Shown here: positions 58,701 through 64,000 of the stretch, piece by piece | How positions within the stretch are numbered: the stretch's first letter is position 1 | Layout: every line of letters starts with the position of its first letter | Notes under the pieces: model-generated | Seen by the model: only the letters and a program-made list of their open reading frames with translations | Told to the model about the DNA's origin: nothing | Database searches by the model: none | Program-made: the position numbers and the translations under genes | Source: Mycoplasmatales bacterium | GTDB taxonomy: Bacteria > Bacillota_I > Bacilli_A > Mycoplasmatales > Mycoplasmataceae | Assembly (NCBI GenBank): GCA_965261505.1 | Contig: OZ253448.1 | Coordinates: forward strand, 394,807 to 458,806 | Direction of reading: 5' to 3' | DNA length: 64,000 nt

Positions 58701-59204
58701 TTAATCCCCTTCAATGTAAAAAGGACGAGGGTGATCTTTTGTAAATCCTAGTATTGGTAAATACATTTCACTAAGGGTAGGCTTATTATAAATAATTGTT
58801 ACTGGTTTATAAGAAACATAAGGAATTAGTGACTCCACAAGTCCCCCCATATTACTTCACTCTTGATTTAAAGTTGAAGTTACTAGATCGCTCTTCCAAT
58901 CAGAGGGTGGCATTTGCTTTCTACCTGCAATATTAATTATAAGAGGATCTGTTTTAGAAGCATGTGACGGGTCATCTAAAAATTTTTTTTGGGGACTATA
59001 GTCTATAACTAATTTTTCAGCAAATTTTACTTTAATATCTGGAATTATTATAGCAGGTATTATTTTATTTTCTTTAATAGGGTTTTCTATAGGATAAAGA
59101 GGAATAGGAGGCTCTTTCTTTTCGCTACAACCACTAACAACATTAGCTAAAGGACTAAAAAGTGCTATAACAGTTATTAAAGATAAAATTTTTCTCATAA
59201 TCAT
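58701..59204 (-). CDS. Small lipoprotein, array copy 1
   Basis: MIMRKILSLITVIALFSPLANVVSGC. Track ORF 58857..59204 reads through TGA to TAA 58701. C-terminus ..WSNMGGLVESLIPYVSYKPVTIIYNKPTLSEMYLPILGFTKDHPRPFYIEGD. 167 aa. Confidence 0.85.
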
Positions 59205-59255
59205 TTTTAATTAAATTAACATAGTTTATTAAATTATATAAAAAACTAAAATAAT

Positions 59256-59735
59256 TTACTCCCCATAGATGTAAAAATATCGAGGGCGGTCTTTTGTAAA
59301 ACCTAATATCGGTAAATACATTTCACAAAGAACCAAGTGGTTAGGAACAATTGTAACAGGTTTAAAGCTTACTAGAGGATATAACTCTGTACTTAGCCCT
59401 CCTAGTGATCTTCATACATCCTTTAAATCTTCAGCTACATTATCTTTAGGTCAATCCTTTGCTAAAATAGCCTCAGAATTATGAATAAGGTATGGTATAG
59501 GTGATTGTTGTGAACCATTTAAAGGATTATTTAAAACTTTTTTTTCAGAACTATAGGTTCTAACTAATGTAATAGCATATTTTGTTTTAATGTCTGGAAT
59601 TATTATAGCAGTTTCTTTAATAGGATATGGAGGTACATAAGGTAATTGCTTTTCGTTACAACTACTAACAACACTAGCCAAAGGGCTAAAAAAGGCTATA
59701 ACAGTTATTAAAGATAAAATTTTTCTCATAATCAT
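59256..59735 (-). CDS. Small lipoprotein, array copy 2
   Basis: ..VVSSCNEKQLPYVPPYPIKE.. Reads through two TGAs to ..VLCEMYLPILGFTKDRPRYFYIYGE. 159 aa. Confidence 0.85.
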
Positions 59736-59783
59736 TTTTAATTAGATGAACATAGTTTATTACATTATATAAAAACAAACAAT

Positions 59784-60287
59784 TTAATCACCTTCAATGT
59801 AAAAAGGGCGTGGATTCGCTTTTGTAAAACCTAACAAAGGAAGATACATTTCACTCTTGGTAGGTTGATTATAAATGATTGTTACTGGTTTATAAGAAAC
59901 ATAAGGGATTAGTGAATCTACAAGTCCTCCAAGATCGCTTCAATCTAGATTTAATAGCGTAATTATTTGCTTTATCTGTCATTCAGAAGGCAGAATTTGT
60001 TTGTTAAATCCTACAGAAATTGTGATAGGGTCTGTTTTAGAGACATTTGAGAAGTCATCCAAAAAATTTTTTTGAGGGCTATAATCTATAACTAATTTTT
60101 CAGCAAATTTTACTTTAATATCTGGAATTATTATAGCAGGTATTATTTTATTTTCTTTAATAGGGTTTTCTATAGGATAAAGAGGAATAGGAGGCTCTTT
60201 CTTTTCGCTACAACCACTAACAACATTAGCTAAAGGACTAAAAAGTGCTATAACAGTTATTAAAGATAAAATTTTTCTCATAATCAT
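59784..60287 (-). CDS. Small lipoprotein, array copy 3
   Basis: N-terminal half identical to copy 1, distal half different. C-terminus ..KSEMYLPLLGFTKANPRPFYIEGD. 167 aa. Confidence 0.85.
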
Positions 60288-60338
60288 TTTTAATTAAATT
60301 AACATAGTTTATTAAATTATATAAAAAACTAAAATAAT

Positions 60339-60818
60339 TTACTCCCCATAGATGTAAAAATATCGAGGGCGGTCTTTTGTAAAACCTAATATCGGTAAAT
60401 ACATTTCACAAAGAACCAAGTGGTTAGGAACAATTGTAACAGGTTTAAAGCTTACTAGAGGATATAACTCTGTACTTAGCCCTCCTAGTGATCTTCATAC
60501 ATCCTTTAAATCTTCAGCTACATTATCTTTAGGTCAATCCTTTGCTAAAATAGCCTCAGAATTATGAATAAGGTATGGTATAGGTGATTGTTGTGAACCA
60601 TTTAAAGGATTATTTAAAACTTTTTTTTCAGAACTATAGGTTCTAACTAATGTAATAGCATATTTTGTTTTAATGTCTGGAATTATTATAGCAGTTTCTT
60701 TAATAGGATATGGAGGTACATAAGGTAATTGCTTTTCGTTACAACTACTAACAACACTAGCCAAAGGGCTAAAAAAGGCTATAACAGTTATTAAAGATAA
60801 AATTTTTCTCATAATCAT
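60339..60818 (-). CDS. Small lipoprotein, array copy 4 (identical to copy 2)
   Basis: Offset exactly 1083 bp from copy 2 with an identical translated ORF. Confidence 0.85.
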
Positions 60819-60866
60819 TTTTAATTAGATGAACATAGTTTATTACATTATATAAAAACAAACAAT

Positions 60867-61357
60867 TTAATCACCTTCAATGTAAAAAGGGCGTGGATTC
60901 GCTTTTGTAAAACCTAACAAAGGAAGATACATTTCACTCTTGGTAGGTTGATTATAAATGATTGTTACTGGTTTATAAGAAACATAAGGGATTAGTGAAT
61001 CTACAAGTCCTCCAAGATCGCTTCAATCTAGATTTAATAGCGTAATTATTTGCTTTATCTGTCATTCAGAAGGCAGAATTTGTTTGTTAAATCCTACAGA
61101 AATTGTGATAGGGTCTGTTTTAGAGACATTTGAGAAGTCATCCAAAAAATTTTTTTGAGGGCTATAATCTATAACTAATTTTTCAGCAAATTTTACTCTA
61201 ATGTCTGGAATTATTATAGCAGGTTTTATTTTATTTCCTTTAATAGGATATGGGGTATATAAGGTAATTGCTTTTCGTTACAACTACTAACAACATTAGT
61301 TAAGGAGCTAAAGAGGGTTACAACAGTTATTAAAGATAAAATTTTTCTCATAATCAT
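60867..61357 (-). pseudogene. Array copy 5, frameshifted chimera
   Basis: MIMRKILSLITVVTLFSSLTNVVSSCNEKQLPYIP, then a 1-nt loss in the PPYP codons gives ..HILLKEIK-stop. The 3' part (60867..61197) is identical to copy 3. Confidence 0.75.
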
Positions 61358-61898: not shown

Positions 61899-61948
61899 TT
61901 TTAATTAGATTAACATGGTTTATTACATTAATAAAAAACTAAAATAAT

Positions 61949-62428
61949 TTACCACCCTTTGATGTAAAAATTTCGAGGGTTTTCTTTTGTAAAACCTAAC
62001 AAAGGCAGATACATTTCACAAAGAACTGTCTGATTAGGAACAATGGTTACATGTTTAAATTTTACAAGAGGAAATAAATCTGTACTTAATCCTCCTAGTG
62101 ATTGTCATACATTCTTTAAAGTTTTAGAAACATTATCTCTAGGTCAATCCTTTGCTAAAATCGGCTCAGAACCATGAATAGGAAATGGTATAGGTGCTTG
62201 TTTTGAAGCAATTGATTGGTTATCTAAAACTTTTTTTTCAGAACTATAGGTCTTAACTAATGTTATAGCATGTTTTGTTTTAATGTCTGGAATTATTATA
62301 GCAGTTTCTTTAATAGGATATGGAGGTATATAAGGTAATTTCTTTTCGCTACAACTACTAACAACATTAGCCAAGGGGCTAAAAAGAGTTATAACAGTTA
62401 TTAAAGATAGAATTTTTCTCATAATCAT
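61949..62428 (-). CDS. Small lipoprotein, array copy 7
   Basis: Track ORF 62144..62428 reads through TGAs to ..VLCEMYLPLLGFTKENPRNFYIKGW. 159 aa. Confidence 0.85.
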
Positions 62429-62476
62429 GTTTAATTAGATTAAGATAGTTTAATGATATACAAAAAACAAAATAAT

Positions 62477-62980
62477 TTAAATCCCTTCAATGTAAAAAGG
62501 ACGAGGGTGTGATTTAGTAAACCCTAATATCGGTAAATACATTTCACTCAAGGTAGGCTGATTATAAATGATTTTTACTGGTTTGTAAGAAACACAAGGG
62601 AATAGTGACTCCACAAGTCCACCTATTTGACTTCAACCTAGATTTAGGGATCTAATTATTGGATATTTTTTTCATTCAGAGGGCAAAATTTGTTTGCTAC
62701 TTCCAACAGGAACCATGAGAGGATTTGTTTTATCACCAATTAAAGGATTATCTAAAACTGTTTTTTCAGAACTATAGGTATTAACTAATGTCATAGCATA
62801 TTTTGTTTTAATGTCTGGAATTATTATAGCAGGTATTATTTTATTTTCTTTAATAGGGTTTTCTATAGGATAAAGAGGAATAGGAGGCTCTTTCTTTTCG
62901 CTACAACCACTAACCACACTAACCAAAGGGCTAAAAAAGGCAATAACAGTTATTAAAGATAAAATTTTTCTCATAATCAT
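62477..62980 (-). CDS. Small lipoprotein, array copy 8
   Basis: N-terminus as in copies 1 and 3 (GCSEKKEPPIPLYPIENPIKENK), middle as in copy 6. 167 aa. Confidence 0.85.
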
Positions 62981-63034
62981 TTTTAATTAAATTAACATAG
63001 TTTAATAATTTATTATATAAAAAAACAAAATAAT

Positions 63035-63514
63035 TTAATCCCCTTCAATGTAAAAAGGACGTGGGTGATCTTTTGTAAAACCTAGTATCGGTAAATACAT
63101 TTCACTCTTGGTAGGTTGATTATAAATAATTGTTACTGGTTTATAAGAAACATAAGGAATTAGTGAATCTACAAGTCCTCCAATCTGACTTCACTCTTGG
63201 TTTAAAGTTGAAGTTACTTCATCACTCTTTCAATCAGAGGGTGGCATTTGCTGTCTACCTGCAATATTAATGAGAAAAGGATCTGTTCTAGAACCATTTA
63301 AAGGATTATCTAAAACTTTTTTTTCAGAACTATAGTCTATGACTAATTTTTCAGCTAATTGTGTTTTAATGTCTGGAATTATTATATTAGTTTCTTTAAT
63401 AGGATATGGAGGTACATAAGGTAATTGCTTTTCGTTACAACTACTAACAACATTAGCCAAGGGGCTAAAAAGAGTTATAACAGTTATTAAAGATAGAATT
63501 TTTCTCATAATCAT
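63035..63514 (-). CDS. Small lipoprotein, array copy 9
   Basis: N-terminus as in copy 2 (SCNEKQLPYVPPYPIKE), middle as in copy 1 (AEKLVIDYS). 159 aa. Confidence 0.85.
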
Positions 63515-63569
63515 TTTTAATTACATTAAGATGGTTTAATGATACATTATATATTAAAAACAAAATAAT

Positions 63570-64000
63570 TTAATCCCCTTCAATATAAAAATAGCGAGGG
63601 TGTGCCTTGGTAAAACCTAGTATTGGCAGGTACATTTCACAAAGAGTAGGATGATTATAAATAATTGTTACTGGTTTGTAATAAACATAAGGAAATAGTG
63701 AATCCACAAGTCCTCCAATCTGACTTCACTCTTGGTTTAAAGTTCAAGTTACTTCATCACTCTTTCAATCAGAGGGTGGCATTTGCTGTCTACCTGCAAT
63801 ATTAATGAGAAAAGGATCTGTTCTAGAACCATTTAAAGGATTATCTAAAACTTTTTTTTCAGAACTATAGTTTGGAGGAGTTTTAGAAGCAGCAATACTA
63901 AAATTTAAAAAAGGTTCTAAATGAGATAAATTTATTTCATTATATCCATGGGCTCTCCCAATATATTCTGCTCAACTGTATGTGTAATATGAAGATGATC
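63570..64000 (-). CDS. Longer family member (array copy 10), 5' end beyond right edge
   Basis: The frame is open from position 64000 to TAA 63570-63572. The C-terminal ~110 aa (..YSSEKKVLDNPLNGSRTDPFLINIAGRQQMPPSDW...EMYLPILGFTKAHPRYFYIEGD) match the array. The upstream part (..YSWAEYIGRAHGYNEINLSHLEPFLNF..) is not a signal peptide. Confidence 0.75.

Follow-up and report, generated by a model that had tools for sequence, protein, structure and literature searches.

The window (the whole 64,000-nucleotide stretch of DNA analysed here) carries nine head-to-tail lipoprotein genes preceded by the gene of an exported protein, B, which ends in the same domain as the lipoproteins; in B and in the lipoprotein encoded next to it, the hypervariable core of this domain is almost the same. 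We tentatively propose, at somewhat less than even confidence, that the lipoproteins may be partners of B, some cognate and others orphan, with a role like that of immunity or exclusion factors.

The lipoprotein array

The nine genes lie on the minus strand, measure 480-504 bp each and are separated by spacers of 48-55 bp; translated with table 4 (TGA = Trp), eight are intact and one is frameshifted by a 1-nt deletion, as the earlier note had described. That note counted at least ten paralogues, of which nine are confirmed, whereas the tenth, "longer" gene is the 3' end of B (last ~143 codons; 63570..64000, minus strand), which continues beyond the window, translates into the exact C-terminus of P0013 and has only the C-terminal 100 amino acids in common with the lipoproteins. 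Directly downstream of B lies Lp1 (63035..63514; 159 aa), followed by Lp2 (62477..62980; 167 aa), which is of a long-stalk type and has a core type without known B counterpart, and by Lp3 (61949..62428; 159 aa), which has the most divergent core type (IHGSEPILAKDWPRDN...) and differs from its ortholog in the syntenic locus L001 (8399-8878) by 13 nt and 6 aa. The DNA of Lp4 (61407..61898; 163 aa) is 100% identical to L001 8929-9420. Lp5 (60867..61357) is a pseudogene, truncated at 43 aa by the deletion in the stalk region (CCTCCATAT to CCCCATAT). Lp6 (60339..60818; 159 aa) is identical to Lp8 (59256..59735; 159 aa), with Lp7 (59784..60287; 167 aa) between them, and the last gene of the array, Lp9 (P0001; 58701..59204; 167 aa), is 100% identical in DNA to L001 10001-10504. 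A complete IS element (57368..58646, plus strand; transposase 57411-58592, 393 aa, rve domain; terminal inverted repeats of about 25 bp, GATTAGCCTAGTTGATCCCAACAC) bounds the array 54 bp beyond Lp9, in line with the flanking IS noticed earlier.

All copies share the N-terminus M[IM]MRKILSLITV...VVS[GS]C, so that the near-invariant signal peptide with lipobox reported before holds throughout, and the C-terminus W..(G/D)GL...(Y/F)K(P/H)V(T/K)I...EMYLP(I/L)LGFTK..PR.FYI.G. Two Trp residues were said to be encoded by in-frame TGA at conserved positions; the positions are indeed conserved, but the first codon is TGG in Lp9 (58701-59204).

The same -10-like TATAAT context recurs in every spacer and no intergenic terminator was found in the spacers. 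Typical multigene families of Mollicutes are vsp, vlp, vsa and P35. The array shows no sign of a phase-variation device like those of vsp/vsa/vpma, vlp or P35: all genes have a single orientation, no convincing inverted repeats surround the spacers, the spacers contain only T5-T7 runs near the -10-like box but nothing longer, and no recombinase gene is seen alongside. Because of the recurring TATAAT context and the lack of terminators and switch elements, co-expression of the array genes is plausible.

An undescribed domain

Each array protein is a minimal surface lipoprotein: the signal peptide with its lipobox is followed by a proline-rich, disordered stalk of about 35-45 aa and then by a single ~100-aa domain. 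In the AlphaFold model of Lp9, residues 1-64 have pLDDT <50 and residues 66-167 pLDDT 95-98; the domain is predicted to be a compact alpha/beta fold. This agrees with the earlier description of globular-looking, non-repetitive proteins, no intragenic repeats being found in them. The "invariant C-terminus" formerly taken for a module is a conserved motif, but it forms the last third of this one domain instead of a separate unit. The domain has no family match in Pfam, NCBIfam, PDB or BFVD, as the earlier note anticipated for its C-terminal module, the array proteins giving only a sub-threshold lipoprotein signal-peptide match in Pfam/NCBIfam. A domain-profile search of 1.84e9 representative proteins returned 31 matches at E<=1e-3, of which 29 seem genuine and are all Mollicutes-like (the other two are repetitive, unrelated proteins), while no relatives were found in 185,579 species-representative genomes. 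By these comparisons the family appears to be undescribed and previously unrecorded.

In full-length matches the domain is C-terminal and occurs in three architectures: B-type proteins (520-533 aa) and lipoproteins of two size classes (246-344 aa and 150-167 aa). Its hypervariable core, about 35-60 residues long, lies between conserved flanks. In a comparison of 21 diverse family members, the invariant positions were limited to two Trp, one Pro and one Phe, and no candidate catalytic residue was found, so that the "conserved activity" suggested earlier is unlikely.

Protein B and its gene cluster

B (P0013) is a 529-aa protein with a Sec signal peptide and no lipobox, and its full-length ortholog in L001 (6218-7816) is 88% identical. 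No toxin, enzyme or fusogen domain is recognisable in B, and its structure could be modelled only poorly (mean pLDDT 55) and without a PDB match, which speaks against an effector role. Read from the sequence, a conserved Trp/Gly-rich hydrophobic hairpin may be membrane-active. B is the middle gene of a cluster that begins with A, a BNR/Reg_prop-like beta-propeller protein, and ends with one or more lipoproteins. A, like B, has a Sec signal peptide without lipobox, whereas every partner lipoprotein has a lipobox. The order A-B-lipoprotein is found in L001/L003, L002, L004, L007 and L010, and B-lipoprotein in L011; the cluster occurs in at least five lineages, all of them Mollicutes, whose B proteins are only about 30% identical, and most other lineages have a single lipoprotein per cluster. 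In L007 the genes overlap or abut (the end of A is the start of B, and B and the lipoprotein gene are 1 nt apart).

The core of B matches that of its neighbour

The core of B is 95% identical to that of Lp1 at the amino acid level (other array copies 35-73%) and 93-100% at the DNA level (other copies 45-90%), while B alleles among themselves are 51-76% identical in the core (24-49% differing). At a second metagenomic locus, B and the adjacent lipoprotein have cores 91% identical. In L010, B and its lipoprotein run for 96 nt without a difference, after which 57/93 positions of the tail differ; in L011, 135 nt without a difference precede 35/114 differing positions; in L007 the identical stretch is 228 nt; and in L004 the two are 96.6% identical over 297 nt. 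In all, the core is identical or nearly so between B and the adjacent lipoprotein at no fewer than six loci. Since the identity holds at the DNA level, it reflects recent gene conversion. The core identity could be neutral concerted evolution between adjacent repeats, which would count against a partner role; the differences between B and the lipoprotein in L007, 5 synonymous and 4 non-synonymous, give no decisive dN/dS. The syntenic metagenomic locus, with 71% amino acid identity in the core and 87-97% DNA identity over its 3' two-thirds, shows only a partial match, which likewise weighs against that role.

Of the other array members, Lp9 has a core 82% identical to that of P0009, the truncated product of another B gene in this genome, and the core of Lp5/Lp7 resembles a B allele of the metagenomic strain (76% aa), while the cores of Lp2-4, 6 and 8 are unlike any B in the same genome. 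The earlier note had considered a ligand; the same domain ends B and its variable core tracks that of B, which points to a protein partner (B and its cluster) instead of a host ligand or an enzyme activity.

Recombination within the array

A perfect tandem duplication spans 59002..61197 (unit 1083 bp, 2.03 copies): 59002-60114 equals 60085-61197 at 100% identity (1113 bp, no mismatch, offset 1083). The unit starts and ends in mid-gene, taking in the 3' portion of a first gene, all of a second and the 5' portion of a third. Of the nine copies, two are the product of this single, very recent event, although an assembly duplication is conceivably the cause. The distinct intact proteins number seven. 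Lp7 is a mosaic with the 5' half of Lp9 and the 3' half of Lp5, the 3' two-thirds of Lp5 being identical to Lp7. The variation in array size between strains that the earlier note had raised is borne out by nine copies here against five at the syntenic locus of the metagenomic strain. The array changes by homologous recombination in its conserved parts, yielding duplication, deletion, mosaics and copy-number differences. Among its members the flanks are homogenised (pS about 0.2) and the cores deeply divergent (pairwise dS 0.03 to >1); by a crude Nei-Gojobori count pN/pS is 0.80 in the core, against 0.28-0.36 in the signal peptide and tail. That the core value stays below 1 counts against a partner role.

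A collapsed second locus and mobile elements

A second locus in the window (10341..11137, minus strand) has collapsed into a pseudogene of a 265-aa lipoprotein (cf. P0024) with the same C-terminal domain. This domain is chimeric, combining the lipoprotein's own version with that of a B gene since lost: window positions 10327-10583 are matched by both L006 1533-1789 and L006 5503-5759, and about 3.7 kb (gene A and most of B) was lost through recombination between the two domains. The pseudogene also has TTA changed to TAA, a nonsense mutation, and has lost 1 nt in the signal peptide; that this remnant is itself a pseudogene speaks against a partner role. Two lipoprotein-only remnants, this pseudogene and the solitary P0031 in L009, have nevertheless outlasted A and B, which is in favour of the partner reading.

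Three loci are flanked by IS elements; at the syntenic metagenomic locus L003, a second copy of the IS that bounds the array is found upstream of gene A, in inverted orientation. Gene A of the syntenic metagenomic strain is 5'-truncated beside an IS, so that the system may be partly defunct in this strain. One A-B-lipoprotein cluster is located on a contig flagged circular that encodes a MobV-like relaxase, VirD4- and VirB4-like ATPases, SSB and ParA and is, to judge from these genes, apparently a conjugative element; the locus of the window and most others are chromosomal, with no transfer genes in view.

Alternative explanations

The array could encode ordinary variable surface antigens, an immunodominant coat diversified by recombination against host antibody, the likeness to B being a functionless by-product of conversion. 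The earlier note recognised the layout of such loci, and the homogenised 5' end with its conserved signal peptide, the diversified body, the mosaics and the strain-dependent copy number of these tandem lipoproteins do conform to it; elevated amino acid change in the core and recent conversion at the DNA level are also in its favour, and such multigene families are the norm in Mollicutes (PMC2568036). We nevertheless regard it as doubtful: no ON/OFF device was found at the array (one orientation; no inverted repeats, long homopolymer or adjacent recombinase), its proteins have no intragenic repeats, and neutral conversion explains neither why B and its neighbour have a homogenised core and a diverging tail (L010, L011), the opposite of what array members show, nor why A-B-lipoprotein is kept across lineages with such divergent B proteins.

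Alternatively, the lipoproteins would be membrane anchors or docking subunits that tether B, and through B also A, by pairing of the shared domain in an adhesin or cell-contact machine; the array would supply alternative anchors, so that B could exchange its exposed core and stay attached. Having no lipobox of their own, A and B would be lost from a wall-less cell, the three genes are tightly coupled, and a symmetric dimer interface would require matching cores. A precedent has been proposed in MafA/MafB, where a lipoprotein would anchor a secreted polymorphic protein (PMC3482391), and the surface lipoprotein CDS14 is essential for contact in mycoplasma conjugation (PMC6030558), one A-B-lipoprotein cluster being on a conjugative element. 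We hold this to be unlikely, as nine anchors for one intact B seem excessive, Lp2-4, 6 and 8 would be without cargo, and lipoproteins persist once A and B are lost.

It is rather improbable that the array is mainly a reservoir of donor cassettes diversifying the C-terminal domain of B by gene conversion (pilS/pilE, vlhA-like), with the lipoprotein products secondary. A variable core bracketed by conserved flanks is the layout needed for exchange, the core of B equals that of the neighbouring cassette at several loci, and the 3.7-kb deletion chimera documents recombination between B and lipoprotein domains. However, all but one of the nine cassettes are complete genes, purifying selection acts on their signal peptides and lipoboxes (pN/pS 0.28) and the same promoter-like spacer precedes each copy, features that silent donor pools normally lack; most other lineages, with their single lipoprotein per cluster, have no pool at all. 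That the domain is a housekeeping enzyme or nutrient-binding module whose dosage the array raises is hardly credible: it is confidently folded and globular with a conserved C-terminal third, but its only invariant residues, W, W, P and F, include no polar catalytic one, about 29 relatives are spread among 1.84e9 representatives and none among the species-representative genomes, its loci are being lost or disrupted within the species, and it matches no Pfam, NCBIfam or PDB family.

Comparison with known systems

The variable lipoproteins of Mollicutes (Vsp of M. bovis, Vpma of M. agalactiae, Vsa of M. pulmonis, Vlp of M. hyorhinis, P35/Mpl of M. penetrans) resemble the array in their clustered paralogues, conserved signal peptide and lipobox, diversified mature parts, recombination mosaics, strain size variation and adjacent IS. 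The array differs in having no sequence relationship to them, no internal tandem repeats and no invertible promoter, recombinase or phase-variable homopolymer that could be found; its mature protein is one folded domain, conserved in the C-terminal third, and the secreted non-lipoprotein encoded beside it in a conserved three-gene cluster ends in this domain too, with a core that matches.

Polymorphic toxin/immunity loci (CDI CdiA-CT/CdiI, Rhs, MafB with the MafA lipoprotein; Zhang et al. 2012, PMC3482391, where Mollicutes are not mentioned) also combine a large exported protein of conserved body and polymorphic C-terminus with a specific partner gene immediately downstream and then tandem "orphan" specificities, and share cassette exchange via conserved flanks, mobile-element association and frequent decay. 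By contrast, the variable region of B cannot be recognised as a toxin domain and lacks conserved catalytic residues, its export is apparently Sec-only in a wall-less cell, and the partner encoded downstream is homologous to the variable domain itself instead of having an unrelated immunity fold.

Conjugative elements carry surface or entry-exclusion pairs such as F TraT/TraS-TraG, SXT Eex-TraG and the YddJ lipoprotein-ConG pair of ICEBs1. They resemble the lipoproteins and B in matching a membrane or lipoprotein factor allele-specifically to a transfer or contact partner protein; exclusion proteins are not known to be homologous to their targets. Surface lipoproteins govern mycoplasma mating, as the ICEA lipoprotein CDS14 illustrates (PMC6030558). 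The cluster on the circular-flagged contig, with its relaxase-, VirD4- and VirB4-like genes, strengthens the likeness, whereas the array has no sequence similarity to exclusion pairs or CDS14 and the loci are mostly chromosomal.

The lpl (DUF576) cluster of S. aureus likewise consists of tandem lipoprotein paralogues whose gene halves are shuffled by recombination at conserved intragenic segments, and its duplication unit (mid-gene, spacer, next mid-gene) is exactly that of the 1083-bp duplication (Tsuru & Kobayashi 2008, PMC2568036). The array belongs to an unrelated protein family with no Pfam match, its conserved and variable segments are arranged differently, and lpl has no partner protein sharing its domain. 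In homotypic polymorphic recognition receptors, for example Myxococcus TraA, identity of the hypervariable domain on two molecules decides interaction; the array domain is an analogue of TraA, not a homologue, and its homotypic binding is hypothetical.

A possible partner system

In the reading of the lipoproteins as partners of B, the core would be the specificity determinant of a direct, like-with-like interaction between B and lipoprotein. B would be a polymorphic, membrane-active exported effector directed at the surface of other wall-less cells nearby, during competition or mating-type contact, and the lipoprotein with the matching core would protect or exclude the producer's own membrane by binding the domain of B or occupying its docking site. 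The extra lipoproteins, probably co-expressed, may be orphan specificities for B alleles of other loci or strains, like orphan immunity arrays. Immunity proteins are not known to be homologous to their toxins, which counts against the immunity variant of this reading. The core identity between B and its lipoprotein suggests a specific partner or self-recognition system, beyond coat variation.

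The lipoprotein array and its boundaries

The DNA has the features of a Mollicute (~30% G+C, TGA read as Trp), and its translation with table 4 confirmed that the array of small minus-strand lipoprotein genes described in the earlier note is real. Eight intact ORFs (159-167 amino acids) and one frameshifted copy (60867-61357, pseudogene Lp5) occupy positions 58701-63514, from Lp1 (63035-63514) to Lp9 (58701-59204), with spacers of 48-55 bp. All nine copies start with a lipobox signal peptide (M[IM]MRKILSLITV...VVS[GS]C), the C-terminal motif noted earlier is found in every small gene, and the two conserved Trp residues are TGA-coded. 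The longer gene, which had been taken for a tenth paralogue, proved instead to be the C-terminus of P0013 (hereafter B), a secreted protein of 529 amino acids; this 3' end lies at 63570-64000 on the minus strand. A complete IS of 1279 bp (57368-58646), with ~25-bp terminal inverted repeats and an rve transposase, is situated 54 bp past the last array gene. That the whole array is an assembly artefact was rejected, as an independent metagenome assembly has the same genes at its syntenic locus; a perfect 1083-bp duplication is the sole part of the array that could be such an artefact.

Elsewhere in the window there are two apparent cytosine-5 DNA methyltransferase genes with FxGxGG motifs (4716-6512, minus strand, and 11402-12917, plus strand; one reads DLFAGIGGLGLPF). 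Both have a small adjacent ORF and are therefore probably parts of restriction-modification systems. Another paralogous surface-protein pair is encoded by adjacent minus-strand genes at 41738-43120 and 43202-46417; these large secreted proteins (460 and 1071 amino acids, a clear lipobox being present in the second only) have a common terminal motif (NIWKSVFGYQS / SIWNTVFGNQS).

A previously undescribed C-terminal domain

An AlphaFold2 model of P0001, the product of Lp9 (58701-59204), was built with a 16-sequence alignment. Residues 1-64, comprising the signal peptide and a Pro-rich stalk, are disordered in the model, and residues 66-167 form one compact alpha/beta domain (pLDDT 95-98). The earlier statement that the small lipoproteins belong to no recognisable family stands: Foldseek of the domain model gave no significant fold match (best E 0.26 in PDB and 0.31 in BFVD), the small proteins, B and the mid-size lipoproteins have no family match in Pfam, NCBIfam or PADLOC, and neither the domain profile nor B retrieved anything from the PDB sequences. 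The sole NCBIfam match of the small genes, NF045726, is sub-threshold, and no Pfam match of the small lipoproteins indicates membership of the Staphylococcus aureus Lpl / DUF576 family. A sortase-like C-terminal sorting signal was rejected, since the tail belongs to the folded domain and no transmembrane segment follows it. Among 21 diverse members the invariant residues are W, W, P and F, with no polar residue among them, which argues for a putative binding or structural domain rather than an enzyme.

When 5.8e9 proteins were scanned by a word-indexed search, the small protein proved to have 11 relatives, which come from the source genome (986,356 bp, NCBI) and one ENA metagenome; the same type of search with the domain profile added one further fragment only. 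A HMMER search of 1.84e9 representative proteins with the domain profile gave 31 matches at E<=1e-3, 29 of which were judged genuine, all with Mollicutes-type features. The domain forms the C-terminal end of every full-length match, in one of three architectures: B-type proteins with a Sec signal peptide (~520-533 amino acids), lipoproteins with an additional N-terminal domain (246-344 amino acids), and array-type lipoproteins (150-167 amino acids). No relative was found with the B profile in species-representative genomes, JGI metagenomes or IMG/VR, nor with B by tblastn in the PLSDB plasmids. The domain is thus a previously undescribed C-terminal family, common to the secreted protein and the lipoproteins of a conserved gene cluster.

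The A-B-lipoprotein cluster

A metagenomic strain of the same species has a syntenic locus (L001/L003) whose flanking genes are 97-98% identical to those of the window. The gene order there is IS, A (5'-truncated), B (532 amino acids), five small lipoprotein genes, IS and tmk. The product of gene A is a beta-propeller protein (BNR/Reg_prop-like) whose C-terminal part is conserved, and the propeller repeats are its only family matches; a sialidase function was rejected, no FRIP motif having been noticed on reading. In B the domain is preceded by a Sec signal peptide, the conserved motif ELNYWYY and a Gly/Trp-rich hydrophobic hairpin, and B resembles the lipoproteins over the ~100 amino acids of the domain only (BLASTP). 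B as a whole has no family or fold match; its AlphaFold model is poor, and the Foldseek output obtained with it is noise. The hairpin (P0013 residues ~255-295, alignment columns ~305-355) takes a Gly-zipper-like form in this species (GLSIAGLIAGFIPKFGDILGFLFGVLGLAL) and a Trp-rich one elsewhere (GWGWFASWA...). Its composition suggests membrane insertion or interfacial binding, in a region where AlphaFold confidence is low.

The order A-B-lipoprotein recurs in a second locus of the metagenomic strain (L002), in two Tara metagenomes (L004 and L010) and in L007/L008, while a further metagenome (L011) has the order B-lipoprotein. In L007/L008, a contig of nominally 50 kb flagged circular (ENA ERZ25067893, ctg26123), the cluster region is present twice, 31.6 kb apart, and the A, B and lipoprotein genes overlap or abut. 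The neighbouring genes encode a MobV-like relaxase (E=2e-8, below the cut-off), VirD4- and VirB4-like ATPases (Pfam), SSB and ParA, as well as a Bsp6I-type restriction-modification pair; the contig as a whole resembles a conjugative plasmid of Mollicutes or an ICE after excision. Conjugative-element genes were not seen next to the cluster at the window locus, L001-L004, L010 or L011.

In the metagenomic strain a second, inverted IS copy (L003 4945-6223), 94.8% identical to the window IS and with its transposase split into two ORFs, lies ~0.5 kb upstream of the truncated A; the two inverted ISs flank the locus, which is therefore bracketed like a composite transposon. Just past the IS upstream of the cluster, a tandem trio of paralogous secreted proteins of 207-211 amino acids (MKKTITILGAIAI...) is encoded on the minus strand (L003 1551-3694). 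The same strain carries a solitary lipoprotein of the family (P0031, 165 amino acids, with a (PK)n stalk; L009 10001-10498) between ptsI and crr, with no A or B nearby.

Core matching between B and the adjacent lipoprotein

The first ~10 and the last ~35 residues of the domain are conserved and flank a hypervariable core of ~35-60 residues (a long loop and the main helix). This core is matched between B and the neighbouring lipoprotein of the conserved cluster. In the window the B core is 95% identical in amino acids to that of Lp1, compared with 35-73% for the other copies; the identity with the adjacent lipoprotein is 91% in L002 and 71% in L001, where the DNA is 87-97% identical over the 3' two-thirds of the core. 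The cores of B alleles, compared with each other, are 51-76% identical in amino acids, and at the DNA level these alleles are 93-96% identical upstream of the core and 65-83% within it. In the other lineages the cores of B and the lipoprotein show 0 differences in 96 nt followed by 57 in 93 nt of the tail (L010), 0 in 135 nt followed by 35 in 114 nt (L011) and 0 in 228 nt (L007), and B is 96.6% identical to the lipoprotein over 297 nt in L004. The exact DNA match in L010 and L011 ends at the start of the tail.

The array members show the reverse pattern: signal peptides and tails have been homogenised (pS about 0.2), whereas the old, divergent cores show pairwise dS values of 0.03 to >1 and a pN/pS of 0.80 (0.28-0.36 in the flanks). 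Two of the orphan core types are similar to B alleles from elsewhere: that of Lp9 to the truncated second B of the same genome (P0009, 82%) and that of Lp5/Lp7 to the other strain's B (76%). A core-wide dN/dS >1 was not found by a crude Nei-Gojobori count, and B differs from its neighbouring lipoprotein at too few sites for dN/dS to separate selection from recent conversion. What the DNA-identical cores prove is that conversion was recent; they do not prove selection. A diversity-generating retroelement was rejected as a candidate: none of the locus tables lists a reverse transcriptase, and differences between cores (judged by eye, uncounted) do not look adenine-specific.

Remodelling of the array by recombination

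Homologous recombination is actively reshaping the array. Positions 59002-60114 and 60085-61197 are 100% identical, the trace of one very recent 1083-bp duplication with breakpoints mid-gene, which makes Lp6 identical to Lp8, gives Lp7 and Lp9 one half in common and leaves most of the pseudogene Lp5 the same as Lp7; the copies are mosaics. Array size varies between strains, as the syntenic locus shows, with nine copies in the window and five in the metagenomic strain. Two orthologous array copies are 100% DNA-identical between the strains, and others differ at 12-13 nt. This mode of array evolution, exemplified by the 1083-bp duplication, has a parallel in the S. aureus lpl cluster (PMC2568036).

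A second locus of the window has collapsed. Comparison with its counterpart in the metagenomic strain (L006), where a 265-amino-acid lipoprotein, A fragments, B (521 amino acids) and an aldolase are encoded in this order, identified 10341-11137 (minus strand) as a pseudogene of the 265-amino-acid lipoprotein, which has the same C-terminal domain. Positions 10327-10583 align to the domains of both the L006 lipoprotein and the L006 B: ~3.7 kb were deleted by a crossover inside the domain, between the lipoprotein and the now-lost B, leaving a chimera that is further broken by a nonsense codon and a 1-nt deletion in the signal peptide. The aldolase gene (9252-10166) is found downstream of the pseudogene, and one of the two methyltransferase genes abuts the collapsed locus.

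Possible functions of the cluster

From the matched neighbours and the divergent array we infer that the core may encode the specificity of an interaction between B and the lipoprotein. In the model that we tentatively prefer, although it falls somewhat short of being probable, B would be a polymorphic, membrane-active exported effector, the matched lipoprotein would protect or exclude the producer, and the remaining array copies would be orphan specificities. The model draws on the match of neighbouring cores while the diversity of array members is maintained, on the persistence of lipoprotein-only remnants (10341-11137 and P0031), on the association with mobile elements and on the apparent co-expression of the array genes, itself suggested by identical promoter-like spacers and by the lack of intergenic terminators and of a switch.

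By analogy, the locus would in its mode of action come closest to polymorphic effector/immunity loci that carry orphan cassettes (PMC3482391) or to conjugative exclusion pairs, but here the variable domain itself is copied in the partner. As in polymorphic toxin-immunity systems, B is exported and combines a conserved body with a C-terminal region that is polymorphic; unlike in those systems, the C-terminal region has no toxin-domain match (Pfam, NCBIfam, PADLOC, PDB) or invariant polar residues. A lipoprotein gene with a matching allele lies directly downstream, where a specific partner gene would be expected, but this putatively protective lipoprotein is a homologue of the variable domain, as known immunity proteins are not. 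Surface lipoproteins are already known to control mating in mycoplasma (PMC6030558).

A more far-reaching reading, which we regard as doubtful, is that A-B-lipoprotein may constitute an unrecognised, identity-based self/non-self system of wall-less bacteria (immunity-like or mating-exclusion), the array serving as a co-expressed orphan repertoire. Specificity would reside in the ~50-residue core, which would have to be identical on the secreted membrane-active protein and its lipid-anchored partner, and recognition would accordingly proceed by identity and not through complementary toxin/immunity folds. Recombination would hold the effector and the neighbouring partner in lockstep.

Classical antigenic variation accompanied by neutral conversion is an unlikely explanation. 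The variable-surface-antigen layout proposed earlier holds in that the array resembles a Mollicutes variable-lipoprotein locus, its nine clustered paralogues sharing a conserved lipoprotein signal peptide as in vsp, vpma and vsa; the defining features tested, a switch and intragenic repeats, were not found. A site-specific inversion switch was not found, all array genes being on the minus strand and inverted repeats being only AT-rich and 71-84% complementary. No tyrosine recombinase lies beside the array within the window, the sole adjoining enzyme gene being the rve-domain IS transposase. TRF detected no tandem repeats of the vsp/vlp/vsa type in 58000-64000, the body of the proteins being one globular domain, and no promoter switch of the vlp/P35 type was found, the spacers having T5-T7 runs only and no flanking inverted repeats. 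An A7-A8 run is present in the coding sequence at the domain start of most copies (SEKKVL / PQKKFL codons, GAAAAAAAAG), though Lp2 has an interruption in it; slippage could occur at this run, yet the one frameshifted copy is broken elsewhere.

That the lipoproteins act as anchors for an A-B surface complex seems rather improbable, and a function of the array as a donor-cassette pool for B is very improbable.

The interest of the locus stems from the biology of the Mollicutes. These organisms are models of the minimal cell, and their surface lipoprotein families are usually read as immune-evasion coats only; interbacterial competition, kin recognition and mating exclusion are, to our knowledge, essentially undescribed in them. 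The locus makes the question testable, as it provides a tiny, confidently folded domain of which a series of alleles occurs naturally, both matched and mismatched partners within a single genome, and strains with different arrays. Even on an ordinary reading, a new domain family is defined together with a three-gene cluster that is conserved, the recombination that reshapes the array (duplication, deletion and mosaics) is documented and the annotation of a tenth paralogue is corrected. If the lockstep of the cores reflects like-with-like binding, the core would be a compact new specificity module, and the cluster would be a rare case of a protective or partner protein that copies the effector's own domain.
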